A stretch of DNA of 63,934 nucleotides from a virus (taxonomy: Duplodnaviria; Caudoviricetes), in IMG/VR virus record IMGVR_UViG_3300034954_002602, positions 1 to 63,934 of that record. One strand, given 5' to 3'. Position numbers and translations under genes: made by a program. Under the pieces are notes generated by a model. The model saw only the letters and a list, made by a program, of their open reading frames with translations, was not told the DNA's origin and did no database searches. Positions 1,947 to 56,242 of the stretch are shown one piece after another; positions within the stretch are counted from its first letter, which is position 1, and each line of letters begins with the position of its first letter.

Positions 1947-2431
1947 TTCAATCCTGTAACCTGTAGAATGTATCTGTCCTCGTGTCCTAGATTTGCGGCC
2001 ATGTGTTCCGTGCCTTGTCCCCAACCAAAATAGTCTCCTGCGTTTCCTATACATATCTTGTCCTCTATCCACAACTGATGTCCTGCTTTTTGGTCGTGCA
2101 AGAATACAATGATCCTTTGTATGTCCTTTTGTTCTGTATCTGAAATGTTGTTGAGCCTGATGTAGGTTTTATAATGATCTGTGTGGTAAGGCAGTATTTC
2201 TCCAGGAGCAACTTTGTTGACAGCACAAACTTTCCTATTCAGAGGCAGTGATTCTACCGCTTCGTAGAATTTAGACAGTAGTTTTTCGTCAAAACACATC
2301 GCAACACCGATCTTGTAGTTGGTAGTGTCCACCGTGGCCCCAAACCTTTCTTCGTGGTCACTATTTGTGAACCAAGTCAGATCCTTGTAATCGTTCTCGG
2401 TCCAGGTGACTGGTAGTTTTCCTTTTATCAT
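1940..2431 (-). CDS. 2OG-Fe(II) oxygenase / cupin-like protein
   Basis: PG..LPYHTD (HxD) and distal H in EHMAAN...R.ILQVTG. Confidence 0.65.
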   Translation of the reverse strand: MIKGKLPVTWTENDYKDLTWFTNSDHEERFGATVDTTNYKIGVAMCFDEKLLSKFYEAVESLPLNRKVCAVNKVAPGEILPYHTDHYKTYIRLNNISDTEQKDIQRIIVFLHDQKAGHQLWIEDKICIGNAGDYFGWGQGTEHMAANLGHEDRYILQVTGLKC

Positions 2432-18413: not shown

Positions 18414-18800
18414 ATGCATTATAAAAGTAGAACATACCAGTTGAACTCATTGCGACTGGGACTTATTAATGAGGATAACCTCTACGGCAAGCCTACTGTC
18501 TTTGTTACTGTTGGTTCGCAAGGTCCAAATGTCGAACAAACTGTAAAAAAATATCTGCAAATGCACAAAGAAGGAAAGCACAACGTGATTGCGATACCAT
18601 ATGATCTCGAAGGATGGGAGCCAGGCGATGATTATGAAATATACACCTACTATGAAAATTTCCTAGGCATTGAATTCTATGTCACAGAAAAACTTAAACG
18701 AGATCATATCTTCTTTAAACATTTCGGTGTTCCAACTAAAAATTTCACAGAATATCATTTTACCAAGGATACAGCCTTCATAGGAATGTTCAATGAGTAA
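18414..18800 (+). CDS. hypothetical protein
   Basis: ORF 5 nt after TAATTA. Confidence 0.6.
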   Translation: MHYKSRTYQLNSLRLGLINEDNLYGKPTVFVTVGSQGPNVEQTVKKYLQMHKEGKHNVIAIPYDLEGWEPGDDYEIYTYYENFLGIEFYVTEKLKRDHIFFKHFGVPTKNFTEYHFTKDTAFIGMFNE

Positions 18801-20061
18801 AGTCTATTGCGATTACCCTTTCAATCACAACTATGTCCACACAAACGGAAAGATGAGATTGTGTTGTACCACCATACAGGATATTCCAACAGACAACAAC
18901 TACAATCTGTTTGACGCTAACAAACACAGCATAGACGAATATTGGAACAGCAATCGTATGAAAGAAATACGTAGAAAAATGATTGCAGGAGAAAAGATCA
19001 GGGATTGTGCAAGGTGTTACAAACAAGAAGAGAGTGGTCTAGAAAGTTTAAGGCAAACTCGAGGTATGGATGAATACGTGAAACGCACCCTGCCCGATGG
19101 CACATTCGATGGTCGTGCAACAACAATGCAAGTACAGATGGGAAACGTTTGTAATCTAAAATGCAAGATGTGTAGTCAGATGTACAGTCATATGCACGGA
19201 CTGGAAACCAAAGCAATAGGTGAACAGGATCCAGAATGGCTTCACTGGGTGAAAACACAAGGAGCCAACGTCAACAACTGGACGAACCAATTAGGTGAGA
19301 AACAGGAATGGTACAAGAACACTGAATTCAAAAAACAAATCTTCGAACACATAAGTTCAAACATAGTAGATTTAACAATCATCGGAGGTGAACCTACACT
19401 GATTCCGGAGTTCTATGAACTGTTCGAATACTGCGAAGACAAAGGAACCCTAGGCAATAAAACTATACGTGTCACTACCAACCTGACAAATACCAATCCA
19501 AAATTAACAAGGTGGTTGCCAAAACTAAAAGATTGGTCAATCTTTGCCAGCATTGACGGCATAGGTGAGAGGACAGAATACATTAGATATCCAAGTGACT
19601 GGAATAAGGTGAATCAAAGCCTCGACTTCTACAAAAGTCTTATTGGAAAAACAGGGCACATTTCGTTAAGTCCTGCTGTGCAATTATTAAACATAGATCA
19701 ATTGGATGAAATAGTGGCATGGTGGAAACAATGGTGTGGAACAGATGTACTGAAAGGTAGGTATGGATGGTCTTGGTTGGCAACAGTTTGGTATCCTCTG
19801 ATTTGCAATCCAAACATAGCGCCTCGTCCATGGCGTCTCAAAGTAGCAGAAAAATTAAGCAAATACAAGTTTGATGAGCAGTACGATAATCTCATAGAGT
19901 CATTACGCACAGATCAGCACCCAGACCAAAAAGCAAAAGATCTACAGAGAGCGTTCATCAAATATAACGACAAGCAAGATCAATTTAGGAATGTCAAGAT
20001 CACTTGGAGACAATTAGTGCCTGCACTCGAACAAGCGATATTAGAAAATCTTAACGATTAA
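18793..20061 (+). CDS. radical SAM protein with N-terminal SPASM/twitch-like Cys domain
   Basis: CNLKCKMC, GGEPT, SIDG; N-terminal C..P...CC...CxxC. Confidence 0.85.
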   Translation: MSKVYCDYPFNHNYVHTNGKMRLCCTTIQDIPTDNNYNLFDANKHSIDEYWNSNRMKEIRRKMIAGEKIRDCARCYKQEESGLESLRQTRGMDEYVKRTLPDGTFDGRATTMQVQMGNVCNLKCKMCSQMYSHMHGLETKAIGEQDPEWLHWVKTQGANVNNWTNQLGEKQEWYKNTEFKKQIFEHISSNIVDLTIIGGEPTLIPEFYELFEYCEDKGTLGNKTIRVTTNLTNTNPKLTRWLPKLKDWSIFASIDGIGERTEYIRYPSDWNKVNQSLDFYKSLIGKTGHISLSPAVQLLNIDQLDEIVAWWKQWCGTDVLKGRYGWSWLATVWYPLICNPNIAPRPWRLKVAEKLSKYKFDEQYDNLIESLRTDQHPDQKAKDLQRAFIKYNDKQDQFRNVKITWRQLVPALEQAILENLND

Positions 20062-21015: not shown

Positions 21016-22017
21016 TTATCTTACCCCACAGGTATGAAAGCAATTCATTAATCTATCACTGGTACCTTGATTAATTCCTTCGTCCAATCTCCTAAAGAAA
21101 TCACCTTGCAAGATGTCAACGAGGTTAGTGTGATTGATGTTGATTGATTTATGATCGTCTATCAGTCTTTTAACTTCGTGTAAGTCAGCCTCGCCTAGCA
21201 TACAGCAAGGTTGTACTACTCCAGTTGCCCTAATATATACTTCATAAATGTTGTCACTGGCCATTTTGCAAATAACTTTCTTTTCCGAATCAATGTTTCC
21301 ACTATAGACAGGCGGTGTCAAAACTTTCTCCACTTTTCTATCTGGATGGTTAGATGGTTTTTCTAAACTGTAATCATCTACCTCCCATGACTGCAAGTCG
21401 TCCAACTCACCGGTTATCCAGTTTGACTTTTTGAATCTGTTTGTATGGGTTGCGTTGAACTCTATGAATCCCATATCATTTGCTAAACGTTCCGCTTCTA
21501 CTAGTTGGTGTTCGTTGTGTTTGAATATGAGATATTTCCACTGCGCCTGTCCACCTGCCCCGATGTATGCTTTGACGTTTGCCATCAACTTATTCCAATT
21601 GACATTTCTCCTGTACAAGTGGTTTGTGTCTTCTAGGCCATCTATCCCAAACATAACAACGATTCCTAATTCCGCACACTCTCTCCAGAAGTCTTCGTTA
21701 CGTGCTCCGCCATTACTATGCATTTCTAATCTACAATCTTTGTTTATATCCCTGATCCATTTGTATATCTTCAACACCTCAGGATTCATTATTGGATCAC
21801 CATAGGTACCAACTGAATGAACTTTCTTCAACTGTTTGATCAGTTTCTCTGGAATACTTTTTTGTACCACTTCAAGTGTGGTATGATTTTTGTTGACTCT
21901 ATCCTTGTTCAATGTGCCGTCGTGCTCGTTGAATCTTGCACACATAGGACAGGCCGCATTACAAAAATCTGTGAACTCGAAGTTGATAACATTCAAATTG
22001 TCTGGCGTAATGAACAT
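21016..22017 (-). CDS. radical SAM/SPASM protein
   Basis: CNAACPMC, GDP, FGIDG, C-terminal PCC...CxxxC. Confidence 0.85.
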   Translation of the reverse strand: MFITPDNLNVINFEFTDFCNAACPMCARFNEHDGTLNKDRVNKNHTTLEVVQKSIPEKLIKQLKKVHSVGTYGDPIMNPEVLKIYKWIRDINKDCRLEMHSNGGARNEDFWRECAELGIVVMFGIDGLEDTNHLYRRNVNWNKLMANVKAYIGAGGQAQWKYLIFKHNEHQLVEAERLANDMGFIEFNATHTNRFKKSNWITGELDDLQSWEVDDYSLEKPSNHPDRKVEKVLTPPVYSGNIDSEKKVICKMASDNIYEVYIRATGVVQPCCMLGEADLHEVKRLIDDHKSININHTNLVDILQGDFFRRLDEGINQGTSDRLMNCFHTCGVR

Positions 22018-23315
22018 TAGAGATCTTTCACTTCATTCCATATCTGCGGATAAACTTTTTTCCAATCTGTGTTTCTTCTTCTGTCTAGTTCATTCAGATA
22101 TATCACGAGTTGTTTTTGTCTAAGGACGCTAGGTTCTCTTTTTTCAAACTCGTTAAGTATTCCAAGCATATACCGTTTATGGTTTTGTTTTACGGAGTCC
22201 TCGAATCCATGAGACTTCGTATCAAAATTTTCTATTGCTTCTCTGAGTCCCCACTCGTTGATTTTCTTTCCAAACACTCCAGGATACAACCAAGGCTGAC
22301 CAGGTTGTTCGTATGAGTTGGCCTTCATCATACTCCAGTATATCGGTTTTATTTTACTACATTCATTGATGTATCTTACCATAGCAGGCATTCCTGGCAC
22401 AGCAGTAACAGTCAATGCACTGTTAATGGCCTGCTCTATGTTTGTGTTATGAAGTATGTGTTCGAAGTTTTTGATTGCCACCCCTAGGTCCAACCCTGTC
22501 CTCACATATTCCCCCTCGTCACCCAATGCATCACAACTGAAGAATATCTGTATCTTATCAAGACGACCGGACTTCTGTAATCTGTCTAACCTATCTATCC
22601 ATCCTTTGAATCTTTCATGTTCGATGTTATGATTACTAAAGAACACAAGGGTAAGGTCAGGATAGTTGCCTTTTTCCAAATACTCGATGAACCTGAAAGT
22701 CTCCTTCTGTAAAAATGGCTCACCTCCCATTACAAAAATCTTGTGCAGTTTATGTAGATGCTTTTCAAACCATTTGAACAAAAGTTCAGTGTGTTCTTCT
22801 ATCTTGGGATTTTTTGTGTATTTCTCTTTGATCCTCACACCGCCACTATTGAATTCACCAAAACGTTTTTTCTCTTGTTGGATTGTTGAACTAAAGTGTG
22901 AGTCACAGTAGATGCAAGACTGCTGGCAGGTGTTCCCCCAATACACTTCTATTTGTCTAGGTGTTACATCCACGGCTTCAAGGTCGTGTTCTAATTCTGG
23001 TGGTGCAGTTGTACCTTCAAGGTGTAGGTGTATCATCCTGTCAGATGTACCGCCTGCCTCCTCTATGTGTTTGCAGTGTTCACAGTTTCTTCCTGGCCAT
23101 TCTCCCCGAAGCATCTTCCTTCGTGCTTCAAGTTTGGCTGGAATGTTATGGAAGTTCAGTTCGCCATTCCGCACTTCTAGAGGGTCACCTTGTACCCTGT
23201 GACAACTCGCACTCAACCCATCCGTCAGGTACACCGTGCTATGAGTCCATTTGAGTTGGCACGGTAGACCTTTGGTAATAGGAAAAGGTTTAGGTGGTTG
23301 CTTTGAAATGCCCAT
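22017..23315 (-). CDS. radical SAM protein
   Basis: CQQSCIYC, GGEPF. Confidence 0.85.
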   Translation of the reverse strand: MGISKQPPKPFPITKGLPCQLKWTHSTVYLTDGLSASCHRVQGDPLEVRNGELNFHNIPAKLEARRKMLRGEWPGRNCEHCKHIEEAGGTSDRMIHLHLEGTTAPPELEHDLEAVDVTPRQIEVYWGNTCQQSCIYCDSHFSSTIQQEKKRFGEFNSGGVRIKEKYTKNPKIEEHTELLFKWFEKHLHKLHKIFVMGGEPFLQKETFRFIEYLEKGNYPDLTLVFFSNHNIEHERFKGWIDRLDRLQKSGRLDKIQIFFSCDALGDEGEYVRTGLDLGVAIKNFEHILHNTNIEQAINSALTVTAVPGMPAMVRYINECSKIKPIYWSMMKANSYEQPGQPWLYPGVFGKKINEWGLREAIENFDTKSHGFEDSVKQNHKRYMLGILNEFEKREPSVLRQKQLVIYLNELDRRRNTDWKKVYPQIWNEVKDL

Positions 23316-29614: not shown

Positions 29615-30892
29615 ATGACAGTAAACAAGGGATTATTATCACTAGTAGAGAACACACCAAACTTTTCAGACCAAGCATTGGAAAATGCAATCAATGAGAT
29701 CAAAGCAATAGACAAGGATGATGGACACCAATTCATTTTATCTCAATTCTTATTAGACACAGCAATACACGATAACACAGTTTTGACCACGTCACAGAAA
29801 AATGATGTGCTAGATGCAATCTACAATGCCCAGCCTCATTTGCAGATTGGACGTTATCTCAATGACGTTGTAAGACACACAAAGTCAATAATCGATGGAT
29901 CTATTATACCTGTTGACGAACTGACCAATCCAATACAAAGAACCTTTCTGGAAATTATGCAGGACGTTCTCAGCCTACAATCGTTGGTGCCAGAACTTTA
30001 CGGAGTTGCGGCTTCTGAAAAGAAAAGATCTGTGAACGATCACTTGGGCACTTTGAATAATATTTTCGTTAGCACAACCGACAGCACTGCACCTGTGTTC
30101 ACAAGGTTGAAAGAGATAATGGAATTGATTGATGCAACATCAAGGGCAAACACGGTTAGTGGTTTGAATCTCGCCATCACAAACGCGGCCGCGGGCAATT
30201 TAAACTTGCGGACTTTCCTGGCCGGTCTCGTAGCCGACTCTACGGACTTCCAGCAATCCTTAGACAATATGGTGAACCTCTGTACTAACAAGTATGCAAC
30301 CCTCAACACTCGCATATCAGAAATACCAGGAGACCCAACCACTGACTTGGTAGCAATAAGAGAGGAAATCAATACACAGGTGGCATTAGAAAACAGCAAC
30401 CTCTTGGGTATGGACACCTACGTTGAAACCCTAACAAACCAAATTGCATACACATCATTGGCCAGCGATGCTGATCTAAGATCTGTATTGGTGAACACTG
30501 CACAGGATCTAAACTGGCAGTCGTACTTCAGAGACTACGAGACCAACCAATCTAACCTCAACCCTCTTTACACTACAGACACCGACTCTGACAAGAGTGG
30601 CGTCATTGATCAGGTTCTTGCAGACAGTGGACTACCTGATGTCACAGATGCAACTGACCTAGAAGCAGTTGCTGAAAAGGCCAAACGTGACAGCAGGATT
30701 GATACTGCTAACTTTGATCGTTACACAGTGGAAACACAAATAACAAAAAGTTGTGAACAGTTGGGCATAACCACAGCCAACAGAACTATAAGTGCTCTGA
30801 GCAATAGTCTATTGAACAATATGAATAAGTTTGACAGGGATGAAATTGCTAGGAGTCTAGATCTCAACGAGGACGCAGAGACTCTAAGTTAA
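29615..30892 (+). CDS. hypothetical protein (probable virion/baseplate)
   Basis: 425-aa ORF following PAAR gene. Confidence 0.6.
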   Translation: MTVNKGLLSLVENTPNFSDQALENAINEIKAIDKDDGHQFILSQFLLDTAIHDNTVLTTSQKNDVLDAIYNAQPHLQIGRYLNDVVRHTKSIIDGSIIPVDELTNPIQRTFLEIMQDVLSLQSLVPELYGVAASEKKRSVNDHLGTLNNIFVSTTDSTAPVFTRLKEIMELIDATSRANTVSGLNLAITNAAAGNLNLRTFLAGLVADSTDFQQSLDNMVNLCTNKYATLNTRISEIPGDPTTDLVAIREEINTQVALENSNLLGMDTYVETLTNQIAYTSLASDADLRSVLVNTAQDLNWQSYFRDYETNQSNLNPLYTTDTDSDKSGVIDQVLADSGLPDVTDATDLEAVAEKAKRDSRIDTANFDRYTVETQITKSCEQLGITTANRTISALSNSLLNNMNKFDRDEIARSLDLNEDAETLS

Positions 30893-31104
30893 GAATCTTC
30901 TTTCATTTCGTTACAACCTACTTCAATGCTTTCATAATCTTGTCCATAATAGGCAAAAACATCTGTCATTCCGTAGAAACGAGCGGCCGCATCTGACTCA
31001 CACTTGGCCAATTCTTGATATATTTTTCCTGTGCTGTCGTCATAATCGGTGCACTTCATCTCACCATTTACTAGGACACACATCACCATAAAAAGTTTGT
31101 ACAT
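30889..31104 (-). CDS. small Cys-containing hypothetical protein
   Basis: Start trimmed to MYKLFMVMC; architecture resembles 32231..32443. Confidence 0.6.
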   Translation of the reverse strand: MYKLFMVMCVLVNGEMKCTDYDDSTGKIYQELAKCESDAAARFYGMTDVFAYYGQDYESIEVGCNEMKEDS

Positions 31105-31115
31105 ACAAATAGTTA

Positions 31116-31397
31116 TGGCCCGTTCTGTTGCAAGGTGGGCCAAACCCCTGAGAATATTGGTTATTACGCCGCTAATCTCAATGCAGGCATACCGACTGTT
31201 AGGTCAGCAAACCCTAATGCTCTTTTGTTTGCATTTAAAAACTGGACGTATTCCTCGTGCCTACAGGGAGTTCTCGTAAAAAGTTTCAACGTGAATCGAT
31301 CCTAATTCCACCCCTCAAGTTTCATCGCTCAAATGGTGGAGTGGCTGGGAATTGCACCCAGGTCTTCACCGCCTATTGATTTCTAGTCAACAAACTC
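31116..31397 (-). ncRNA. ssrA: two-piece (circularly permuted) tmRNA; tag ANKRALGFADLTVGMPALRLAA
   Basis: Acceptor piece ends CTGGG-TGCAATT-CCCAG-CCACTCC-A-CCA (31334); 19-nt spacer; coding piece starts GGGGTGG..GGATCGA (31314); G3-U70 pair; tag ORF 31232-31164; outer ends approximate. Confidence 0.93.
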
Positions 31398-31404
31398 AAA
31401 TATA

Positions 31405-31433
31405 ATTATACCCTAAGGTTGACTGTTTGTCAA
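31405..31433 (-). promoter_or_regulatory. sigma70 promoter of tmRNA
   Basis: TTGACA-17-TATAAT; overlaps a divergent TTGACT-17-TAAATT promoter. Confidence 0.85.
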
Positions 31434-31454
31434 TTCTGTGCTAAATTAGTTTAT

Positions 31455-31658
31455 ATGCCAAAAAATAGAATATTCAAAATCACAGACGGAACAGAGACAA
31501 AGGAAGTTGAAGCACTCTCTTTCAAGAAGGCCGTGAAATCATTTCAGGGCAGTTCTAAAGCGAAGATGATAACTATCGAGTGGATGACGAAGGGTGGAGA
31601 ACTTTTCGTCAAAGATCAACCGATACCACTAGGTAGAAAGAAAAAGATAGGACGTTAG
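31455..31658 (+). CDS. hypothetical protein
   Basis: Start MPKNRI just after divergent promoter. Confidence 0.65.
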   Translation: MPKNRIFKITDGTETKEVEALSFKKAVKSFQGSSKAKMITIEWMTKGGELFVKDQPIPLGRKKKIGR

Positions 31659-31671
31659 ACAAGAAGTGAGA

Positions 31672-31833
31672 GTGAGCCACAACCCATTAGTTAAATTACT
31701 GGTCAAACTAAGAATGGCCTGGGCAGATGCACGGGGACATCACGGCAAAGTCTGGGACTATGAGCCTGGTGAGTACTATATGGGCCGACACGCAGGACAC
31801 CGTAAACACGAGAAAAGACACAAGATAAAATGA
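31672..31833 (+). CDS. 53-aa His/Arg-rich peptide (..LVKLRMAWADARGHHGKVWDYEPGEYYMGRH..)
   Basis: Hand translation; GTG start; below ORF cutoff. Confidence 0.55.
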   Translation: MSHNPLVKLLVKLRMAWADARGHHGKVWDYEPGEYYMGRHAGHRKHEKRHKIK

Positions 31834-32444: not shown

Positions 32445-32472
32445 TTGACAGATCTCAAAGATATGCTATAAT
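32445..32472 (+). promoter_or_regulatory. sigma70-type promoter
   Basis: TTGACA-16-TATAAT with TG extension. Confidence 0.75.
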
Positions 32473-32545: not shown

Positions 32546-33622
32546 ATGAGCAAGGTAAAAATGCTTCTAGACGTCGTCGCAGAAGTCAAGAAAGAAGCAC
32601 CAGAAGATGTTCCAAACTGGAACGCCAAACTAGCAGAAGCAAAAGTAAATCTACAGAATCAAATCGCGAAAGGCAGGCTGTTGCCCAAGGGTGTTGAAGA
32701 TCATCCACTTGAACATTTCGCATTCAATTATTCCGTACAACGTGATGTGAGGGCAGGACACGTTATGAACATCATGAAGAAGTTCGATCCAAGGGTTTGT
32801 TGTCCTGTGTCAGCAGTAAAACGTTCAGACGGTGATACACTATACATATTCGATGGGCAACACAGAGCAGTGGCCCTGGCACTGTTGGGTTGGACAAAGA
32901 TCCCAGTAACAATAGTAGAAACAGATGAACCGGCCTTTGACGCAGAAGCATTTGAGATTGTTAATGACTCAGGCATATTGAGAGCAGGCACAGAAGAGAT
33001 CCACAGATGTCTATTACACAGATATAAAATGGGCGAAACAGAAACAGAAAGGGTTGCTACAGCACACGCGGTGCAGAGAGTGTTTGACGAGTGTGAGATT
33101 GATCTAGAGCCAAAACGTGTCAGGAAGAGCCCGGGCAAGTGTGGACCTAACAAACATTACTTCTCACATTTTGATTATGCATACAAAGGCATCAAGATGG
33201 CGGGTGAACACGGACTCAAGAACGCATTAGAGGCCATCAAGGCCATATACGGTGATGAGGAAGGTGGTGAGATCAATCAGGGTCTTTTCATAGGACTTAT
33301 GAAGCAGTACCAAATGGGTGCTGAGGCCAAGAGGTTAAACAGGCTTCCAGGAGACTGGATGTTCAAGATGGTTGAAGCAGTGAAGAAGGTATGCCCAAGT
33401 GGTGTGTTGGTACACACCGCAACCAAGAAACAATGGCAACACGCAAATGGTGTTGGGTGGGACGCACCGGTGGCAATGGCACATCTATTAAGAGAAGTGT
33501 ACTTGTTGGAAGATGGCACGTTCGAACCTAGTTATATGCCCAATGTTACATTGAAACTTGAGGACGGAGATATAGCCAAAGAATCAGAAGCACAAACGGC
33601 CTTCAACAAGTATGTCAAATAA
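32546..33622 (+). CDS. ParB/Srx-like DGQHR-motif protein
   Basis: VQR...YIFDGQHRAVA...IPV. Confidence 0.7.
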   Translation: MSKVKMLLDVVAEVKKEAPEDVPNWNAKLAEAKVNLQNQIAKGRLLPKGVEDHPLEHFAFNYSVQRDVRAGHVMNIMKKFDPRVCCPVSAVKRSDGDTLYIFDGQHRAVALALLGWTKIPVTIVETDEPAFDAEAFEIVNDSGILRAGTEEIHRCLLHRYKMGETETERVATAHAVQRVFDECEIDLEPKRVRKSPGKCGPNKHYFSHFDYAYKGIKMAGEHGLKNALEAIKAIYGDEEGGEINQGLFIGLMKQYQMGAEAKRLNRLPGDWMFKMVEAVKKVCPSGVLVHTATKKQWQHANGVGWDAPVAMAHLLREVYLLEDGTFEPSYMPNVTLKLEDGDIAKESEAQTAFNKYVK

Positions 33623-34998: not shown

Positions 34999-35134
34999 AT
35001 AATTCCGTAACGCCACTGTCCAAGTGACGTCGGAAATAAAAGGACGCTTGAGTAAGCACTCTTTACTGGAAACAGAACGCCCTTCCGTATGCAAGATCCT
35101 TGCTAACTTTTACAAAAAACATTTATAATTGAGT

Positions 35135-36214
35135 ATGATAGAAATTCTACGTTCTAGTAATGAGCCTATGAAAATCGTTGACTGGATCAACGACTTCGGA
35201 CTGAACACACCAACCTATTTGGTGAAAGGCAAACCGTTCTATAACAGATATGATGCTATTGAAAGTTGTGTAACCGAGGGTGTTGAGTGGCCAGACTTCC
35301 GTGTATGGCAACAGTCATACAAGATGGCCGAACCAGAAGAATCATTCTTTGATCTGTGTAAGAAACAAGCACAGGCCATTAGCAAACGTTTCAAGAGAGT
35401 TAGATTGTGGTATAGTGGTGGTTACGACAGCCATACTATGTTGAAGGCTTTTTTTGAGTCTGGCCTAGATGTTGACGAGATCTGCACCTGGAGACGATTC
35501 CCTGGAGTGTTCGATAGTTTCACAAACATTGAATCTGAATACATTGGCACATTCGATGACCTACAGCACTATTGCGAACAGCACAACAGTAAGGCAAGAA
35601 TTAGGGTATGTGATGTGACCCCCGACCATTTCAGATGGTACTGTAAAAACTTTATTCATTATAATAAACACAAGACACTCGCACAGGTATTGAACGCACA
35701 GCATCATCACGTTATGGAATGCTATCCAGAGCTCATAGACAAAGAAACTATCAATGTTTCCGGAGCAGGAGATGTTGCATTAGAAGATGATGGTTTTAGG
35801 TTTTATGATGGTTTCAATTACTCCCACTCGGCTCCAAACACTTTATTTTTCTATTATGACGAGTCGATGCCTGAACTCACGTTCAAGTATGCTTATCATA
35901 TGAGAAACTATGAATACCCTGACCAGAAGAACATGGCAAAGAAGGATCTAGGGTTCACTGCCCTAAACCCAATGCTGGCCAAAAAGTTTTCTGAGGGAGT
36001 TGATGAGGTAACTGGTGGTAAAACTATTTCTTTCTGTAGGAAATCTGCACTGTTGATCAACAATGCAATAGGAACTACACACGGAAAAAGGATCCTGATC
36101 CAGTATAAAAAATTCAGGAAGAAATATGAAAAGGAAAGGAAAAAATTTTTAAATCAAGGTAAGTGCTCTAACGGATGGGTAGGTGCTCTCAGTGAGAAGC
36201 ATTATTTTATCTAG
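35135..36214 (+). CDS. PP-loop (adenine nucleotide alpha-hydrolase-like) protein
   Basis: LWYSGGYDSHTML. Confidence 0.65.
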   Translation: MIEILRSSNEPMKIVDWINDFGLNTPTYLVKGKPFYNRYDAIESCVTEGVEWPDFRVWQQSYKMAEPEESFFDLCKKQAQAISKRFKRVRLWYSGGYDSHTMLKAFFESGLDVDEICTWRRFPGVFDSFTNIESEYIGTFDDLQHYCEQHNSKARIRVCDVTPDHFRWYCKNFIHYNKHKTLAQVLNAQHHHVMECYPELIDKETINVSGAGDVALEDDGFRFYDGFNYSHSAPNTLFFYYDESMPELTFKYAYHMRNYEYPDQKNMAKKDLGFTALNPMLAKKFSEGVDEVTGGKTISFCRKSALLINNAIGTTHGKRILIQYKKFRKKYEKERKKFLNQGKCSNGWVGALSEKHYFI

Positions 36215-36278: not shown

Positions 36279-37133
36279 ATGAGAACTATTTTAATATCAT
36301 TTATTACGTTTATTTGTATGTTGGCACACACTGCCAGTGCATACGATCTGGTGCTGAATGCACCATTCAGTAAGGCCGGTAGTGGTCAATTGACGATGAG
36401 GACACTTGCAAAAGGTTTAGAGGCGAAAGGATACAACTTTGATATAGTCATCACATCAAATGCAAAATTATCTAAACAAAACTACGCTGACGAAAACAAG
36501 CCATTACTTTTAGGTTGGGAAGCGCCTGCATCAAGCAAGGGGGCACCTTTGTATATGGGACCACCAACAGACAAGGATCTAGTTGCAATAGTTGTGACGA
36601 TGGGACATTTCATCTGCACAAAGAAAGACATTTCGATTGAAGATGTTTTCAATGGAAAAAAAGAACTGACTATTGCCCATGATGTTGCCTTTGGTAATTG
36701 GGTACAAGAGTTGGCAGATCACACTGGTGCCAAATTGAAGTTGATTCCATACAAAGGATCAAAAAAGGTTGAAAATGCTTTGGTATCAGGCGAGGTTGAC
36801 CTAGCAATGAGCACCAAGGGAGCAGGTTGGCAAAAGAAAGGTTTGGCTAACTGCTTATTAACATCTGGAACAGATAGTGTATTAGGTATCCAGACTGTGA
36901 ATAGTCTGTATCCTGATTGGAATGATAACACTCTGGTCTTGACTTTTTACATAAAATCTAAGAATATCCCACAAGATAAATTAGATCAATTAAGAAAAGA
37001 CATTGAGGAAGTGAAAAGGACGTCTGAGGAATTCGCGGCTTTGGTTGAGAAAAAATCGTGGACACCTGTCGTGGACAAAAGCATAGACGAACAACTATCA
37101 CTACTTCAAGCGATAGACAAGTCTATCAAATAG
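36279..37133 (+). CDS. TctC/Bug-like substrate-binding protein
   Basis: Signal peptide; PFSKAGS; IPYKGS...ALVSGEVD. Confidence 0.75.
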   Translation: MRTILISFITFICMLAHTASAYDLVLNAPFSKAGSGQLTMRTLAKGLEAKGYNFDIVITSNAKLSKQNYADENKPLLLGWEAPASSKGAPLYMGPPTDKDLVAIVVTMGHFICTKKDISIEDVFNGKKELTIAHDVAFGNWVQELADHTGAKLKLIPYKGSKKVENALVSGEVDLAMSTKGAGWQKKGLANCLLTSGTDSVLGIQTVNSLYPDWNDNTLVLTFYIKSKNIPQDKLDQLRKDIEEVKRTSEEFAALVEKKSWTPVVDKSIDEQLSLLQAIDKSIK

Positions 37134-37157: not shown

Positions 37158-38456
37158 ATGCTAGACATATTTTTATTGTTGTCGTCTCCTTTCATAGGAA
37201 TCCTCGTTGGGTTCCTACCGGCGATGGGTGCATTCTTCACTTTGCTGTTGATGTACCCGTTGCTGATAGACATGGATCCTTTGTTGTTGATCCTATTTTA
37301 TTCAATCCTCATAAGTGCAAGAGACTTCAGCGGAAGCGTCAGTGCCTTGAATTTTGGAATACTGGGCGAGGTAACCAGCCTCCCGGTGTTGCAGGAGAGG
37401 AAAAAGATCATAGACAATCACAAACAAAAGGAAGCACTGCGAAACACAATGATAGGCAGTGTGTTCGGAATGGCAATGGGGTTGGCTTTCCTCTTACTGA
37501 TATTGGCAGGAATAGGTGACTACAGTGTGTTGTTACGAACAGATGTAATGGCAGTCTTGATTTGCCTTACTATAGTGTTCCTGGTGTTTTGGGACAAGAA
37601 CAAATGGTACATGAACCTTGTCATCGGGGCGTGTGGGTACCTCGTTGCTATGGTAGGGTTCGATCCATACATACAAAAAGAATACTTTACATTTGGCAAC
37701 GTATACCTGTCGGGTGGTGTTCCAACGATGCCTTTGCTCCTTGGACTTTACGGAGTGCCTGCTATGTTTGCCATTATAAGGCACACCAAACTTCAAAAAC
37801 CAAAGCCAATACACGACCAGGCCATGTCCAGGGTTCGTTTGCCTATCCTATTCAGGTCCAGCGTGATTGGTTCCTTGTGTGGATTCGTACCTTACATAGG
37901 TAGTGTGTTGAGCAGTAACATTGCCTATATGTTCGAGAAAAAAATAACAACAAACAATGTGAAGTCCGCACTAGACAGAATAGTGGCATCGGAAACAGCC
38001 AATAACGCCAGCCAGGTGACTGTGTTGATTCCATTCATCCTAATAGGAATCGCATTACAACCTTCCGAACTTTTAGTTTTAGATATGATAGAAAACAAAG
38101 GCTGGGAGATTAATTTTGAATCAGCGAAGCAAACTACTTTCTATCTTATAATAGCATTACCTATTGGATGTCTTGTATCTGCATTCTTGTGTTACAATAT
38201 GATCAGCCGGGTGTTGCATTTTTTCCAGTTGCATCATAAAAAAATTGTCTACTCTCTGTTGGCAATCATCATAGCAAATATTTTCTATCTTGGTTATGAC
38301 TCAAACCAGTCACTGTACTATATGCTGGTGTTCGCCACTGCGTTGCCAATTGGCTTTTATCTCAGAAAGCACTTTGATCTGATGCCTTTTATTATGTGTT
38401 TTTTGCTACAAAATCAGTTCCAAGAGACACTTATCAGGCTTCCCATACTGTATTAG
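37158..38456 (+). CDS. tctA: divergent TctA-like transporter subunit
   Basis: GFLPAMG, FSGSVSA..FGILGE, VG.DP...FTFG, SETANNA; multi-TM. Confidence 0.8.
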   Translation: MLDIFLLLSSPFIGILVGFLPAMGAFFTLLLMYPLLIDMDPLLLILFYSILISARDFSGSVSALNFGILGEVTSLPVLQERKKIIDNHKQKEALRNTMIGSVFGMAMGLAFLLLILAGIGDYSVLLRTDVMAVLICLTIVFLVFWDKNKWYMNLVIGACGYLVAMVGFDPYIQKEYFTFGNVYLSGGVPTMPLLLGLYGVPAMFAIIRHTKLQKPKPIHDQAMSRVRLPILFRSSVIGSLCGFVPYIGSVLSSNIAYMFEKKITTNNVKSALDRIVASETANNASQVTVLIPFILIGIALQPSELLVLDMIENKGWEINFESAKQTTFYLIIALPIGCLVSAFLCYNMISRVLHFFQLHHKKIVYSLLAIIIANIFYLGYDSNQSLYYMLVFATALPIGFYLRKHFDLMPFIMCFLLQNQFQETLIRLPILY

Positions 38457-45477: not shown

Positions 45478-46065
45478 ATGGCAAAAGGTGATAAGCACGT
45501 AGGTGCACAAGACGTACAAGGAAACAAAGAGCAAAAATCAGAAATTGCAGTCACAGGTGCAAAATTGGATCTAAGGAAAAAGAACGGAACCATAACATTA
45601 GTGACGCCTCCGAGTTTCTTTCAAAACCAAAACAGAAGTTTCTGTTTGATTAATCTTAGCAAAAAAGACAAAGATAATTTTGCTGACCAAATAAACAAAT
45701 ACTTTCCAAAGGACGACCTAACAATTTATCTGTGGGATGATAACAACTTTTCTGCACTGGATCCTTTTGGAGGCGATGATCCTGAATACGAGAGATATCT
45801 CGAGAACTGGAAACCAAACGCCAAGGGCAGAGACTACACTTGGTTGTTGAATGCCTGCAGGGCGGCAACCACTGTAATATTGAATATGGACTACAGTTCT
45901 AATCAAATGAAAGTATGGTCAGGTTACATTCTCACAATGGCCAAGACTTGGTTCCTAAACTCCAATGTAGATGATTCAGCATCGTTTGGTGTACTAAACA
46001 GAAACAAGATCAACGGAATGCACGAGTTGTTTCCAAAGATCCAAAAACTCAAAGATAATCAGTAA
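45478..46065 (+). CDS. hypothetical protein
   Basis: Coupled to clpX. Confidence 0.65.
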   Translation: MAKGDKHVGAQDVQGNKEQKSEIAVTGAKLDLRKKNGTITLVTPPSFFQNQNRSFCLINLSKKDKDNFADQINKYFPKDDLTIYLWDDNNFSALDPFGGDDPEYERYLENWKPNAKGRDYTWLLNACRAATTVILNMDYSSNQMKVWSGYILTMAKTWFLNSNVDDSASFGVLNRNKINGMHELFPKIQKLKDNQ

Positions 46066-47309
46066 TGTCCGAAGAGACATTGGTATGCTCGTTCTGTAGC
46101 AAGAGTCGTAAAGACGTCACCAAGATGATCGTTGGTGCAAAGAAAACATCAATTTGCAATGAGTGTGTTAAATTGTGTGTTGAGATCCTAGAAGAAGATG
46201 TGATCAAAGCACGTAAGGAGAAACTGTACGCAGGTGACAAAAACATACTCAATCCTGTGGCAATCAAAGAACACCTTGATCAATATGTGATAGGCCAAGA
46301 TCAAGCAAAGACTATCCTTAGTGTTGCAGTGGCGAACCATTACAAACGAATTGTTCAGCCACCTATTGACTTCGAACTAGACAAGTCAAACGTGATGGTG
46401 CTTGGTGCCACTGGTGCAGGTAAAACACTAATGGCGAGGACAATCGCGAAATACTTGGACGTTCCATTTGCGATAGCAGACGCAACCACATTGACAGAAT
46501 CAGGATATGTTGGTGAGGATGTTGAGAACGTGGTGCAGAAACTGTATGCCAATGCAGAAGGTGACATTGAGAAAACTGAAAAAGGAATAATATTCATAGA
46601 CGAGATTGACAAGATCTGCCGTAAAGGAGAGAACACATCTCTCACCAGAGACGTGTCGGGCGAGGGTGTGCAACAAGGGTTACTGAAGATAGTAGAGGGC
46701 ACGGAGTGTAGGGTGCCTCCACATGGCGGACGAAAGCATCCAGATCAGCAGACTGTGACAATAGACACAAAGAACATATTGTTTATAGTTGGAGGTGCGT
46801 TCACAGAATTAGAGAAACAAATAAGATCAAAGAAATCTGGAGGGATAGGCTTTGGCACACAACTGAGAGAACAGGATGAGAAGAATTATCTCAGTGAAGT
46901 AAAACCAGAAGATCTAATCAAATATGGACTTATACCAGAATTTGTTGGAAGGTTCTCAATGATCACAAACATAGATCCTTTGAATGAAGCACAGTTGATC
47001 AGAATATTGACAGAACCTCGTAACGCCATATTGAAACAGGTACACTACCTGTTTGGACTGGACAACATAGAAATTGAATTTACCAAAGAAGCCAAGCAGA
47101 GCATAGCCAAGAAAGCAAAAGCACTGGGCACCAACGCAAGGGGACTTAAAAACGTAGTAGATACTGTGGTTCTTCCCTATCAATTTGACGCTGAGGAGAT
47201 GAGAAGCAAGGGAGTTGGCAAGATACAGATAACTAATGCGGTGGTTGACAATGAAGCAGACCCTGTGTTAGTATTTAAAAAAGATGGATCAACAAAGAAA
47301 CAAATTTAA
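46065..47309 (+). CDS. clpX: ATP-dependent Clp protease ATPase subunit ClpX
   Basis: CSFC..CxxC Zn finger, [35 protein letters not shown] loop. Confidence 0.95.
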
Positions 47310-47634: not shown

Positions 47635-47698
47635 GTTGAAGATTGCTATAGATAGGATCTTCACAACATTAACTCGCTTAACAATAGGAGGAAAGCAA
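47635..47698 (+). promoter_or_regulatory. ROSE-like RNA thermometer
   Basis: 5' hairpin TGAAGAT..ATCTTCA; CTCGCT (UYGCU) pairs with SD AGGAG with bulged G. Confidence 0.6.
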
Positions 47699-48139
47699 AT
47701 GACAAAACATCTATCTATTTTTAATAACCTAAGACCATACACAGTAGGATTTGACGACTGGTTCGATCACTTCGAAACAATGATGGACGACAGTTTCTTC
47801 AGAGGAACTAGCAACTTCCCACCATACAACATAGTGAAGACTGGTGACAACACCTACGATGTTGAACTTGCTCTTGCAGGTTTCAACAAAGACGACATCG
47901 AAGTAGAATATAAAGAGAATCTACTTACAGTCAAATCCAAGAAACAGGAAGAGACTAAAGACGAGGATGGTAATGTGATACAACACAGAGGCATTTCAAA
48001 GAGAATGTTTTCTAAATCATTTACCATTGCCAACGATGTAGAAGTCAAGGGTGCAGAACTCAAGGACGGCCTATTAAAAGTGTCAATGGAGAGAATAATC
48101 CCAGAACACAAGAAGGCTAAACTTATCGACATCAAGTAA
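47699..48139 (+). CDS. small heat shock protein Hsp20 (IbpA-like)
   Basis: FPPYNI, ELALAGF, HRGIS.R.F, A.LKDGLL. Confidence 0.93.
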   Translation: MTKHLSIFNNLRPYTVGFDDWFDHFETMMDDSFFRGTSNFPPYNIVKTGDNTYDVELALAGFNKDDIEVEYKENLLTVKSKKQEETKDEDGNVIQHRGISKRMFSKSFTIANDVEVKGAELKDGLLKVSMERIIPEHKKAKLIDIK

Positions 48140-48857: not shown

Positions 48858-49886
48858 ATGACCATATGGGCAGAATTCACTCCGTTGAAAAAATGTGTCG
48901 TGGGCACTCTGCCTGATGCAGATCAAATACTACCTCACACCAACCTAACCAATAGGTACAAGAAATATTTTACAGAAATAATCAATACATCAAAGAAAGA
49001 ACTGGACCAACTTGCAAAGACGTTGAATGATCTTGGAGTGCAAACATCGAGAAGCAAACAGCATTATCCAATACACAATGGCCACACAATCACAACACCA
49101 CCGTTGGCGGTAAGGGATATTTTCTCAGTGTATGGTAATGGTTTATTCAAAGGTAACTTTGCTTGTGAATGGAACAAAGATGTACCGGACTCGTGCAACC
49201 ACGTGCTTGAATCTATGAAGTTTGATAGTGTCACAAAACTACCCACCAATGATATTTTCTTTGATGGAGATTTCACTACCTTTGATCCTGACAAGGATTT
49301 GAATCGTCCGTTGTTCCATCCACCTATGTCCTTGCGTATTGGTAACGATATTGTTATTGCAAAAAGATATGGGAGAGAGGGCAACGATCTAGGCAAAGAT
49401 GCCTACATAGATTGGTTGAGATCTATCAACCCTTCTGTGAGGATACACACGATAGACACAGAGAGTCATATCGATTCACAAATATTTTTAGTGCGTCCTG
49501 GCTTACTGATAACTTGTTTACAAGATAACAAACTGCCCGAATATTTTGATAAATGGGAAAAGGTAAAAGTAAAAGCGGTGACATCGCAGGCACTCCATAA
49601 GAAAAATCGCTACAGGCACAAAAAGTTCCATCCGGTCATTGCCCAGTCATTTTACAATTTTTTAGAAACTTGCACAGAAGAGACATACTTCGACATCAAC
49701 AGTCTAAGTGTGAATGAAAACACTGTACTATTCACAGGACGCCATACGGAACTTTTTAGAAAACTCGAAAGGAGAAATGTCAACTGTGTAGCAATAAGTA
49801 TGAAAGCAACCACATTCTGGGACACGGGAGTTCATTGTGCAACTAACGAACTGGAAAGGGAAGGAACTTTAGAAGATTATGCTTAA
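48858..49886 (+). CDS. amidinotransferase-family protein
   Basis: EFTPLKKCVVG, VRD, HIDS..LVRPGL, GVHCATN. Confidence 0.8.
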   Translation: MTIWAEFTPLKKCVVGTLPDADQILPHTNLTNRYKKYFTEIINTSKKELDQLAKTLNDLGVQTSRSKQHYPIHNGHTITTPPLAVRDIFSVYGNGLFKGNFACEWNKDVPDSCNHVLESMKFDSVTKLPTNDIFFDGDFTTFDPDKDLNRPLFHPPMSLRIGNDIVIAKRYGREGNDLGKDAYIDWLRSINPSVRIHTIDTESHIDSQIFLVRPGLLITCLQDNKLPEYFDKWEKVKVKAVTSQALHKKNRYRHKKFHPVIAQSFYNFLETCTEETYFDINSLSVNENTVLFTGRHTELFRKLERRNVNCVAISMKATTFWDTGVHCATNELEREGTLEDYA

Positions 49887-51454: not shown

Positions 51455-52040
51455 TATAGAAGTAAATGCAACTCATTGTAATACCTGGCCCACTCTGGTA
51501 TTGGAAATCAACAATAACAAAATATTTTCTGATCTAGTCAAAGATAGGCAGAAAATCAGTTTAGAATACACGGATCTCAAACAACAAGGAAACAAATTCG
51601 TAATCGGAATGATTAGAAAAAGTTTTGGCCTCGCTGATATATGGGATACCGTTTACAAAAACAACATCGTAGTACAAGACAAGAAGATAGAAATCCTAAG
51701 TTTAAAATTAGATGATGTTGAATGCAAAGATTTATTAGGGAGCCGTTTCTACGTTCAACGGACAGGTAAGCAACCAAGTTATTTTCCGGACGTTGTGGAG
51801 TCAACTGGCGTGATGAACTACAATGGATATTTTACTTTTGACTTCGATCTGCCTTTGTACAATTCTATAATCAACAAGAAATACAAACAACAAGAAAACA
51901 AGGATCTCAGTTACTTCAGTAATTACACCAAGGTGTTTCATTACGACGACGAAATAAAAGTAATAAACGAAATCAACAGTATATTGAAAGAAGTGGATGA
52001 AAAATTTAGTCATAAGCGTTCCAAGATTAGAAATTCATAG
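51444..52040 (+). CDS. hypothetical protein
   Basis: Overlaps both neighbours. Confidence 0.6.
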   Translation: MKIDIEVNATHCNTWPTLVLEINNNKIFSDLVKDRQKISLEYTDLKQQGNKFVIGMIRKSFGLADIWDTVYKNNIVVQDKKIEILSLKLDDVECKDLLGSRFYVQRTGKQPSYFPDVVESTGVMNYNGYFTFDFDLPLYNSIINKKYKQQENKDLSYFSNYTKVFHYDDEIKVINEINSILKEVDEKFSHKRSKIRNS

Positions 52041-53520
52041 ACCGCCTATCAGTACAGCGATAGTTGCCGAAGTGATAAGGACCACTGGTGCTCCAGTACA
52101 GGCACTTGACTTGAATTGTGAATTCTATCATTTTTTGCCTGACAGGCAGGCATACTACAGTTGGGATGAAATTTGGGACCAAGTACGGAACCCAACCTTT
52201 ACGGAACTAAAAAACTTATTTAGATTCATCAAGCAGAGCCTTGAAAAAATGAAATCTTATGATAGATATTGGATCAGTGTTTTTGGTTCGTCGGGGCATA
52301 TCTTTTCAAAACTGCTCTGCAAGTTTATTCGGAAACATCTGCCAAATAAGATAGTGATACTAGGAGGACAGGGAGCCGCCGCGAAGGATCTACATTCAAA
52401 GGACGTGGGATTTGGTAATGTCCTCAGGAAGCAAGGACTATGTGATATGTATCTCACAGGCGAGGGAGAAGAAGTCATTAAACAAGTGCTGGCAGGAAAC
52501 ACTGACGGTCCAGGCATAAACAATGAGGATCCTGTGCAGATCGACGACATAAATGATCTTCCATTCCCGAACTACAGTTTCTACGATCTAGATCGCTATG
52601 ACTACCTTGACAAGAAAGAAGTGTTCATAGTCGGTAGCAGAGGATGTGTGAGACGATGCACGTACTGTGACGTCGCCAAGTATTGGCCCAAGTTCAGATA
52701 CAGGTCCGGTGAGAACATAGCATCTGAGATGATCAATCATTACGAGAAACACGGAGTCACAAAGTTCTACTTCACTGACAGTCTGATCAATGGCAGTATG
52801 AAAGCGTTCAATGATATGTGTGATAGGCTTGCCAAATACAACACAGACCACAAGGCAGGCTTCACGTGGAAGGGACAGTTCATATTCAGACCCAAAAATC
52901 AACTGCCCCAGGATCACTTCGCCACCGTGGCCGCGGCGGGTGGTAAGGAGTTCTACGTAGGTGTTGAAACGGGCAGTGATAAAATCAGATGGGAGATGGA
53001 CAAGAAGTTTACCAACGAAGACATAGACTTCCAACTAGAGGAGTTCAGCAAGTACAATATAAATGTGATATTCCTTATGTTGATTGGTTACGTTACCGAA
53101 ACACTAGATGATCACAAGGACACTCTCAAGATGTTCAAGCGTTGGCAGAAGTATGTGGCCACAGGCACGATCAAAGGCATCGATCTTGCCACTGGATTGC
53201 TGTTCCTGTCTGACACGCCTTTGCAACGTCAGATAGATCAACACGGAGTCTATTTCTTGAATGCCGAAGGAAACGAACCAGGAAAGCCTTACACAGGATT
53301 GTGGCAGGCCAAGACCAATCCTGATCTAGATGTACCAGAGAGGATACGTAGGAGGATGGAGACGCACATGGAGGCCATCAAGTACAACTGGCCCATATGG
53401 AGAGGCGAGCAAAGGCTCAATCACATCAAGCATATGACACAGAAGTATTTGGATTACCTTAAAGGACAATCTGACAATTTGGTAAAAATAAAGATAGGCA
53501 ACCTGAACTTCTTTGAATAG
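51997..53520 (+). CDS. B12-binding-domain radical SAM protein
   Basis: ILGG, GEGE, LPFP.Y, SRGCVRRCTYC, FTDS, GVETGS, GYVTET. Confidence 0.85.
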   Translation: MKNLVISVPRLEIHRPPISTAIVAEVIRTTGAPVQALDLNCEFYHFLPDRQAYYSWDEIWDQVRNPTFTELKNLFRFIKQSLEKMKSYDRYWISVFGSSGHIFSKLLCKFIRKHLPNKIVILGGQGAAAKDLHSKDVGFGNVLRKQGLCDMYLTGEGEEVIKQVLAGNTDGPGINNEDPVQIDDINDLPFPNYSFYDLDRYDYLDKKEVFIVGSRGCVRRCTYCDVAKYWPKFRYRSGENIASEMINHYEKHGVTKFYFTDSLINGSMKAFNDMCDRLAKYNTDHKAGFTWKGQFIFRPKNQLPQDHFATVAAAGGKEFYVGVETGSDKIRWEMDKKFTNEDIDFQLEEFSKYNINVIFLMLIGYVTETLDDHKDTLKMFKRWQKYVATGTIKGIDLATGLLFLSDTPLQRQIDQHGVYFLNAEGNEPGKPYTGLWQAKTNPDLDVPERIRRRMETHMEAIKYNWPIWRGEQRLNHIKHMTQKYLDYLKGQSDNLVKIKIGNLNFFE

Positions 53521-56193: not shown

Positions 56194-56242
56194 TTGATTT
56201 GTAACAAAACTTTAACATAGCATATATTAAATAGGAACGAAG

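Follow-up and report, generated by a model that had tools for sequence, protein, structure and literature searches.

A two-piece tmRNA gene with a long, lineage-conserved tag and a co-inherited ClpX in an ocean phage

The virus record IMGVR_UViG_3300034954_002602 of IMG/VR (Duplodnaviria; Caudoviricetes), analyzed here over its entire length of 63,934 nucleotides and hereafter called the window, is a linear contig with an estimated completeness of 17%. It contains, on the minus strand at 31073-31437, a complete circularly permuted gene for a transfer-messenger RNA (tmRNA), recognized by ARAGORN and by two Rfam models, with a tag frame of 22 codons. We consider it likely, with a probability of roughly 0.8, that this gene encodes a functional phage tmRNA of the two-piece (circularly permuted) alphaproteobacterial type, the tagging mechanism being one that we deduce from its conserved features. 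The comparisons reported here establish the identity of the gene, selection on its RNA structure, purifying selection on its reading frame, conservation throughout a phage lineage and linkage to a phage clpX gene. An earlier reading of the sequence alone, the original prediction, had proposed a two-piece tmRNA with an unusually long and divergent tag; the phage ClpX, an RNA hairpin located inside the tag frame and the tag as a lineage-wide hallmark were absent from it.

A single gene was reported by ARAGORN in the 63,934 bases, a permuted tmRNA ('tmRNA*') at 31073-31426 on the minus strand, its tag ANKRALGFADLTVGMPALRLAA being closed by two stops. Just two Rfam matches exceeded the gathering score across the window, both at this locus: RF04321 tmRNA_permuted with 85.4 bits (cut-off 47, E 6e-15) and RF01849 alpha_tmRNA with 78.7 bits (cut-off 50, E 1e-19). 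These matches are far beyond chance. Infernal with the Rfam alpha_tmRNA model and ARAGORN, both named in the original prediction as means of verification, were therefore positive and returned the predicted tag, and the calls, made on a virus record carrying phage genes, bear out the proposal of a two-piece tmRNA on phage DNA. The gene order is permuted, as seen in the sequence and by ARAGORN: the T-arm and the 3' acceptor strand with its CCA precede the 5' acceptor strand and the tag frame. The gene is preceded by a sigma-70-type promoter (31405-31433, minus strand) consisting of TTGACA (31433-31428), 17 nt and TATAAT (31410-31405), a 12/12 match to the consensus. In 26/26 distinct relatives the TTGAC of the -35 element is invariant, and the -10 element reads TATAAT or TTAAAT. 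Promoter-like sites in the 3-kb region numbered 10, compared to 5.0 +/- 2.5 in shuffled sequences, and only two of them were 12/12 matches.

The acceptor piece (31334-31397, minus strand) comprises, according to the Rfam alignment, the 5' strands of the long helices of the tRNA-like domain (TLD), the T-arm (31361-31345), the acceptor 3' strand CCACTCC (31344-31338), the discriminator A (31337) and CCA (31336-31334); its 5' end at 31397 is the start of the Rfam model and not a mapped transcript end. A 19-nt intervening spacer (31315-31333), expected to be removed on maturation, separates it from the coding piece (31114-31314), which contains the TLD return strands, the pseudoknot region and the tag frame and was delimited by the RF01849 alignment to the model end at 31114. 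The coding piece opens with the acceptor 5' strand GGGGTGG (31314-31308), which forms seven pairs with CCACTCC, including G3:U70. The region expected to form pseudoknot PK1, which precedes the resume codon, is covered by the RF01849 alignment, and a 3' terminal hairpin occupies 31141-31117. The tag reading frame (31161-31232) follows the context TTTAAAT and extends from the resume codon GCA (31232-31230) through 22 codons, ending at 31167, to TAA TAA (31166-31161). The elements of the original prediction, from the promoter, T-arm, CCACTCC-A-CCA, 19-nt spacer and GGGGTGG with its G3:U70 pair to TTTAAAT-GCA and TAA TAA, were all present in the sequence at their predicted places on the minus strand.

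To assess selection on the RNA, relatives were gathered in four independent ways, based on a T-arm/acceptor 25-mer (4 contigs), the neighbouring 425-residue protein (3 loci), a pattern over tag codons 1-10 (31 viral contigs) and acceptor-stem geometry alone. The resulting alignment of 26 distinct genes folded into a canonical permuted tRNA-like domain (RNAalifold). Pair statistics were computed for 44 chosen pairs, nested helices only, with partners slid by one to three columns as controls. Standard pairs filled 97.6% of the cells, versus 34.0-45.5% with slid partners; 29 of the 44 pairs had changed on both sides, versus 5-12; and the covariation score was 0.624, versus at most 0.114. None of 500 shuffles attained the observed value on four of the five measures. 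At acceptor position 3:70, G:U was present in 26/26 genes. The acceptor stem was 100% paired (two of seven pairs covarying) and the helices of the acceptor piece were 94-100% paired; four of five T-arm pairs had changed on both sides, and all five pairs of the 3' terminal hairpin covaried. The structure was taken from the same alignment as the one tested, which favours the structure; the structural conclusion is nevertheless safe, given the controls with slid partners and the large number of double changes. These results indicate that the structure of the tmRNA is maintained by selection. All four combinations of T-arm type and 3'-hairpin type were present (in the window and in contigs L003, L006 and L008), with a tag region that stayed nearly identical, a pattern suggestive of recombination among parts of the tmRNA gene. 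The spacer was 33 nt long in most relatives and contained there (alignment columns 124-160) the motif TTGGTGG, able to pair with CCACCAA at the 3' end of the acceptor piece; in the window and three other genes it was 19-20 nt long and devoid of TTGGTGG.

Direct translation revealed that the frame starting at GCA was open on 36/36 contigs of the family, including the window, and that it always ended in RLAA and a stop. Two of the 36 contigs are the same DNA filed twice, and the set comprises 24 distinct coding sequences and 20 peptides; two further members were obtained by ClpX-based sampling. The tag contained 22 residues on 32 contigs and 25 on the remaining four, owing to a 9-nt in-frame insertion, and all length differences within the family were whole codons. 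The other two frames were interrupted by 1-5 stops in 21/21 distinct 22-codon sequences. The invariant residues are A1, N2, A5-L-G-F-A-D10, T12 and the terminal R-L-A-A, which was found in 20/20 peptide variants (the frame of the window ends with GCG GCG TAA TAA); positions 3, 4, 11 and 14-18 are variable. Variation was exclusively synonymous at codons 1, 2, 7, 9, 10, 12, 13 and 22, and the variable sites were distributed as 6, 4 and 12 over codon positions 1, 2 and 3. Pairwise comparison of codons gave 553 synonymous versus 639 nonsynonymous differences, the corresponding numbers of possible random single changes being 46 versus 152. This enrichment in synonymous changes indicates that the tag frame is under purifying selection.

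The members found independently of the tag (through the T-arm, the neighbouring protein, the acceptor stem or ClpX) also kept ALGFAD...RLAA, and their first residues were only ANKK, ANKR, ANRK, ANTK or ANTR. Judging from this conservation, the tag is a hallmark of the whole phage lineage and not a one-off. It starts with AN-K/R/T-K/R-ALGFAD and not with an N-terminal adaptor-binding segment of the AANDENY type, which is the SspB-binding part of the ssrA tag. In E. coli and Caulobacter, SspB needs an ANDxx block, and work in E. coli identified the C-terminal LAA as the ClpX determinant.

An RNA hairpin is located within the tag frame (codons 7-16; 31185-31214, minus strand). Its stem of nine pairs was paired in 97.9% of the cells of the alignment, and pair 269/303 covaried, the third base of Gly7 changing together with the first base of codon 16 (G-C for Pro, A-U for Ser and U-A for Thr). 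The 25-residue variants retained the nine-pair stem with a different 3' strand, which still pairs perfectly with GGUUUUGCU. The hairpin was present in the single-sequence minimum free energy and centroid structures, but the z-scores (-0.57 and -1.22) were not significant. Compared to short-tag relatives (L005, L124 and the Pelagibacter phage HTVC008M), the long tag contains an extra in-frame block of ~36-44 nt that holds the hairpin; the tag is thus long because this hairpin-forming segment sits inside the frame. The segment lies between a conserved N-terminal block (AN-K/R/T-K/R-ALGFAD) and a conserved C-terminal degron (LRLAA). The variable middle of the tag peptide appears to be largely dictated by RNA structure, and both ends look peptide-constrained. 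The tag of contig L098, ANDNFASGELRLAA, has the ELRLAA end, and the contig has the 3' hairpin, that are common to family members. We also considered the possibility that an ancestral stop had been shifted out of frame by a 1-nt insertion, since Rfam aligns the consensus stop to an out-of-frame UAA in the hairpin loop. This was ruled out by three of the 21 distinct 22-codon sequences, which are devoid of this UAA (TTC or TTT at codon 11), and by the alignment to the three short-tag relatives, which shows the in-frame block instead.

The window also encodes a ClpX (P0001, 414 residues; 46065-47309, plus strand), 14.6 kb from the tmRNA gene, which is a candidate reader of the -LAA end of the tag. 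The protein matched the NCBIfam equivalogs NF003745 and TIGR00382 with scores of 531 bits (cut-off 359) and 495 bits (cut-off 370.75) and contains zf-C4_ClpX and AAA_2 domains. It aligned to ClpX from the PDB (E 2e-127) over the GYVG, RKH and IGF motifs, which we take to be the pore-1, RKH and IGF loops. The zinc-finger N-domain of ClpX is the adaptor-docking domain in E. coli. ClpX was found in 10/32 related viral fragments and in 8/8 of the fragments of at least 50 kb. In the reverse sampling, 80 ClpX relatives were kept of 390 in IMG/VR, 15 contigs being at least 67% identical and 65 more distant (48-55%). The tmRNA family was present on 13 of the 15 contigs found by ClpX alone at 67% identity or more, and missing from two fragments. 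These distributions indicate that the tmRNA family is tightly co-inherited with the phage ClpX, and the presence of ClpX renders degradation of tagged proteins plausible. From the distant set, 40 of the 65 contigs were searched, 25 contigs smaller than 30 kb being left out, and a permuted tmRNA scored over the cut-off in 14/40. All five ClpX-bearing records that were at least 90% complete displayed a permuted tmRNA match at E <= 0.001, four of them over the cut-off. In two ClpX-bearing jumbo phages (L255 and L256; ~316-344 kb, 91-99% complete), a permuted tmRNA with a 10-residue tag lies inside a tRNA gene array.

Two other genes are located next to clpX. A gene for an Hsp20 small heat-shock protein (47636-48139, plus strand; Pfam HSP20, 61.3 bits, cut-off 20.8) follows it, which makes this a proteostasis neighbourhood. 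The stop codon of a 195-residue open reading frame (ORF; P0002, 45478-46065) overlaps its start. P0002 has 278 homologues in ocean data, all unnamed, and is present in full length beside clpX in two of six relatives; the nearest Atlas clusters to which a Pfam family is assigned consist of nucleoside deoxyribosyltransferases, a weak lead (feature score 0.80). An adaptor or ClpP function of P0002 was considered and rejected, there being no support based on Pfam, NCBIfam or PHROG, full-length conservation being limited to these two relatives and the Atlas lead pointing elsewhere.

From these features we infer the timing of expression, processing, charging, tagging and ClpX-dependent degradation as follows. 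The gene would be transcribed by the host RNA polymerase from the consensus sigma-70 promoter, probably early in infection. Host tRNA-processing enzymes would remove the 19-nt spacer to generate two pieces held together by base pairing, the acceptor piece with CCA at its end and the coding piece with GGGG at its start. The molecule would be charged by the host AlaRS through G3:U70 and would enter stalled ribosomes with the host SmpB. Translation would then resume at GCA and append the tag, and the conserved -RLAA end would hand the rescued polypeptides to ClpX, of which the phage supplies its own copy. As the phage ClpX keeps the IGF loop, it would dock on the host ClpP. Overall, ribosomes would stay available and amino acids would be recycled in the course of infection.

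More tentatively, the tmRNA and the phage ClpX might form a phage-specified tagging-and-degradation circuit, in which the basic N-terminal block (AN-K/R-K/R-ALGFAD) would act as a second recognition element and the tag as a bipartite degron separate from the host tag. This is possible, but we would not expect it. The N-terminal block would then be read by the N-domain of the phage ClpX or by an unrecognised phage adaptor, and the in-frame hairpin would set the spacing between the two recognition elements. Polypeptides rescued from ribosomes that had stalled on degraded host mRNAs would preferentially be directed to phage-controlled proteolysis, with recycling of amino acids in nutrient-poor ocean hosts.

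Several observations weigh against a functional tmRNA that delivers proteins to the phage ClpX. Conservation of codons 1-10 is partly due to ascertainment because 31 contigs were found by the pattern covering these codons, and conservation of codons 7-16 serves partly the RNA hairpin and not the peptide. The resume point was placed later by ARAGORN in two of 24 calls (GMSELRLAA for L018 and L022). The distance between the tmRNA gene and clpX is 10-22 kb, so the genes are not adjacent, and their co-inheritance may be mere shared ancestry within one lineage. SmpB, ClpP and SspB were each found in 0/32 related records, an absence that is no proof because all of these records are fragments (4-39% complete). 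The readable tags on the distant ClpX-bearing jumbo-phage contigs were 9-12 residues long in 10/10 ARAGORN calls (15 loci, 40 records), which rules out long tags as a general trait of ClpX-bearing phages; ClpX therefore does not explain the long tag. Contigs covering the tmRNA were present in four metatranscriptome runs from four studies. The near-identical run covers 31130-31319 and the flanks equally, and DNA carry-over is possible. The three other runs contain relatives at 90-99%, with the tmRNA as the sole covered part in one of them, and the metatranscriptome contig of one relative spans the spacer. These data consist of assembled contigs, which are blind to RNA ends and cannot exclude DNA; they are compatible with expression of the tmRNA.

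The N-terminal block might alternatively define a re-targeting tmRNA, in which a tag devoid of the acidic ANDxx would replace the host tag and evade delivery by the host SspB, the rescued proteins being either stabilized or kept for a phage reader, which might be the N-domain of the phage ClpX or a hypothetical phage adaptor. The block is both conserved and basic, comparison tags starting with AND, ANE or ANN, and five of its codons (1, 2, 7, 9 and 10) vary only synonymously. In addition, the phage ClpX retains the zinc-finger N-domain, and the available text of PMC11915505 provides a precedent, the tmRNA of phage DS6A interfering with that of its host. We nonetheless regard re-targeting as unlikely. 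An SspB-like protein was found in none of the 32 records, and P0002, the gene coupled to clpX, is fully conserved in only two of six relatives and has a deoxyribosyltransferase lead that does not point to an adaptor. Full conservation of the canonical LAA end speaks for recognition by ClpX in the ordinary way, and the need of SspB for ANDxx is a notion carried over from E. coli and Caulobacter.

Resumption at a later codon, for example at GGT to give GMPALRLAA, would leave a shorter real tag and reduce the upstream 'codons' to structural RNA. The two late ARAGORN calls, the occupation of codons 7-16 by the hairpin and the fact that nine residues is the commonest tag length in the acceptor-stem sample would fit this possibility, which we consider very improbable. 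UUUAAAU-GCA-AAC aligns to the resume site of both Rfam models with high posterior probability, the GCA frame is open on every family contig and the other frames are closed in every distinct 22-codon sequence. The 9-nt insertion of the 25-residue forms preserves the frame, and seven of the codons with only synonymous variation (1, 2, 7, 9, 10, 12 and 13) precede the alternative start. It would also be unusual for translation to resume at a codon lying in the 3' strand of a stem. As ARAGORN misplaces the resume codon in some genes, automatic annotation under-reports long tags.

Cellular genomes were searched for the gene in a collection of one genome per species (185,579 species). The tag-start pattern was found on a single contig (14.8 kb), belonging to a metagenome-assembled genome (MAG) titled 'Rickettsiales bacterium'. 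This MAG has three alpha_tmRNA matches, two of the phage type and one of the cellular type (185.5 bits); the tag of the latter, which was not called by ARAGORN, was read as ANDNEMALAA from the model alignment. One of the phage-type contigs, distinct from the one matched by the tag-start pattern, is filed as viral in IMG/VR and encodes a ClpX 67% identical to that of the phage, the MAG's own ClpX being 49% identical to the phage protein. Thus, the 22-residue tag occurs in no cellular genome of the 185,579 species besides phage-like contigs binned into one MAG. Exact patterns for the T-arm/acceptor 25-mer, for an ANN-x-LAMAA-type tag and for back-translated ANDNFA-xx-ELRLAA gave 0 matches in the same one-genome-per-species collection. 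The comparison with host and related-phage ssrA suggested in the original prediction accordingly revealed no identical resident cellular ssrA, and related phages share the family tag. That the gene is a passenger or remnant, a host ssrA derived from imprecise excision or an attachment site and playing no role in infection, is scarcely credible: integration often takes place at tmRNA genes and prophages can contain fragments of ssrA, as stated in the portions available of PMC9004378 and PMC4383910, and 3/32 related records bear the IMG/VR label 'provirus', but the gene is complete, with both pieces and its own consensus promoter, its tag is not found in cellular genomes, compensatory changes extend across 26 distinct genes and no integrase was found among the ORFs scanned, which are part of those of the window.

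The phage origin of the DNA is supported by the virus record itself, by phage genes and by synteny with known phages. Phage-type genes in the window encode a tail-spike-like protein, a class Ia ribonucleotide reductase, an exonuclease, a virion structural protein, a thymidylate synthase and a DNA methyltransferase; most of the remaining ORFs scanned have no family. The thymidylate synthase ... CsgF-CsgG-curlin-FecR module of HTVC008M and of the OM43 phage Melnitz has a syntenic counterpart at the right end of the window (~55.5-63.9 kb). In the window, the CsgF-CsgG-curlin-FecR-like module occupies 61316-63934, and the thymidylate synthase gene and a single-stranded DNA-binding-like gene lie upstream (55573-57208). 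CsgG is 64% identical to that of HTVC008M and 53% identical to that of Melnitz, the corresponding values for the FecR-like protein being 71% and 64%. This synteny ties the contig to the pelagimyophage/Melnitz gene pool. The tmRNA region displayed no blastn likeness to any of 50,697 GenBank phage records. The host is only weakly hinted at, by co-binning in the 'Rickettsiales' MAG and by the curli module in common with HTVC008M and Melnitz.

Downstream from the tmRNA gene, a small ORF (P0003, 71 residues; 30889-31104, minus strand) starts 10 nt past the modelled 3' end of the tmRNA (31114). Its translation has a hydrophobic N-terminus and several Cys residues. No terminator-like site was found between the tmRNA and P0003, and no PHROG family for P0003. 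The start region of P0003 is alignable in most relatives, so that P0003 may be co-transcribed with the tmRNA. On the other side, a second perfect promoter (TTGACA-16-TATAAT with a TG extension; 32445-32472, plus strand) is located upstream of a weakly ParB-like ORF of 358 residues (32546-33622). The phage contig also carries a TctA-family subunit of a tripartite tricarboxylate transporter (37158-38456; Pfam, 177 bits), preceded by two ORFs without family (35129-36214 and 36279-37133). Of four radical-SAM-type ORFs (18793-20061, 21016-22017, 22017-23315 and 51997-53520), three form a cluster on both strands. Three paralogous ORFs, at 2-982 (-), 960-2072 (-) and 48858-49886 (+), match phrog_25854, a family of unknown function.

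The usual view of trans-translation tags is that of short degrons set by the host; in the ocean phage lineage described here, which is abundant and apparently worldwide, a much longer tag of the phages' own has become fixed. If the tag is made, it would offer a natural system for testing how the length of a tag and its N-terminal sequence direct rescued proteins to one protease or adaptor or another, and it would be relevant to the question of why large phages devote genes to rescuing ribosomes. It may also give a degron for engineering that is separate from that of the host.

The length of the tag was compared with a sample obtained from acceptor-stem geometry only, in which 48 permuted tmRNAs were called by ARAGORN at 77 loci. 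Tags of 9 (17 calls), 10 (11) and 14 residues (10) predominated, the others containing 8 (2), 12 (2), 18 (1), 22 (2), 23 (2) and 27 residues (1). Both 8-residue calls are miscalls of a 23-residue frame, and both 22-residue tags belong to the family of the window. A second long-tag phage family, represented by four contigs (L064, L086, L092 and L096), has the 23-residue tag ANAFKPEVTVP-M/V-S-V/I-FAD-Q/A-ELVAA, miscalled as ADAELVAA in two of the four cases, and a 27-residue tag is present on L101. ClpX was found in 0/5 of these records, all of which are fragments (4-13% complete). Ten residues is the commonest tag length in the available part of the tmRNA database paper, which includes 79 phage sequences. 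The description of the window's tag as long and divergent therefore holds: it has 22 residues and a basic start, cultured relatives have 10 and 14 residues, and sampled tags are mostly shorter. The original interpretation of a complete alpha-type two-piece phage tmRNA with such a tag stands, but a phage-encoded two-piece tmRNA is not news, having already been published (PMC9004378 and PMC7162821, as far as their available text goes). We found no description of this tag in the literature on phage tmRNA, two-piece tmRNA, ClpX and jumbo or huge phages, supplementary tables being outside the search. As far as searched, the novelty is a phage-only family of tags of 22-25 residues in which both ends are conserved, the frame contains a hairpin and a phage ClpX is co-inherited.

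The two-piece tmRNA of Alphaproteobacteria (RF01849) shares with the gene of the window the order of acceptor piece, spacer and coding piece, the seven-pair acceptor stem, G3:U70, the T-arm, the resume sequence GCA-AAC, the -AA end and the 3' GCAACAGAA hairpin. The ssrA of Caulobacter is reportedly a two-piece tmRNA. The window copy differs in being phage-borne, in its 22-25-residue tag with a basic start, versus the 10-residue ANDNEMALAA of the cellular copy in the MAG, and in its modest score of 78.7 bits, versus 185.5 for that copy. The closest phage counterparts are the ssrA genes of Melnitz, a phage of OM43 (Methylophilales), and HTVC008M (Buchholz et al. 2022, PMC9004378, in the part available), which are likewise phage-encoded, permuted, alpha-type and marine, and which scored 113.4 and 90.6 bits, respectively, with RF04321. 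Both lie behind a sigma-70-type promoter, read as an early promoter by these authors, in genomes that share with the window the synteny from thymidylate synthase to CsgF-CsgG-curlin-FecR. The tags are ANDNYVPVDYALAA (14 residues) in Melnitz and ANFNEYALAA (10 residues) in HTVC008M, compared to 22 residues in the window, and ClpX is absent from both complete genomes (0/2) and present in the window. Melnitz also has a glutamine (glnA) riboswitch in the ssrA 3' domain, called common but not defining in the same partial source. In the window no such riboswitch was matched at the gathering score, nor, within 30500-31800, at E values up to 1.

Large phages combining a tmRNA with ClpX have been described, as documented in the available sections of the respective papers. 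Sinorhizobium phage AP-J-162 has a tmRNA, ClpX and Hsp20 (PMC11242549), Bacillus phage G has a tmRNA, ClpP and ClpX (PMC12484599), and the huge phages of Al-Shayeb et al. 2020 have tmRNAs and SmpB (PMC7162821). These sections draw no functional link between tag and ClpX. The ClpX proteins of these phages and of the 40 distant IMG/VR contigs are less than 60% identical to that of the window, and the readable tags are shorter, with 9-12 residues on the IMG/VR contigs and 13 in phage G. Mycobacteriophage DS6A, according to the available text of PMC11915505, produces a tmRNA devoid of a coding sequence that is said to interfere with the host tmRNA. It resembles the tmRNA of the window in departing from the usual form in the tag region, and differs from it in having no tag frame, whereas the frame of the window is long, open and conserved.

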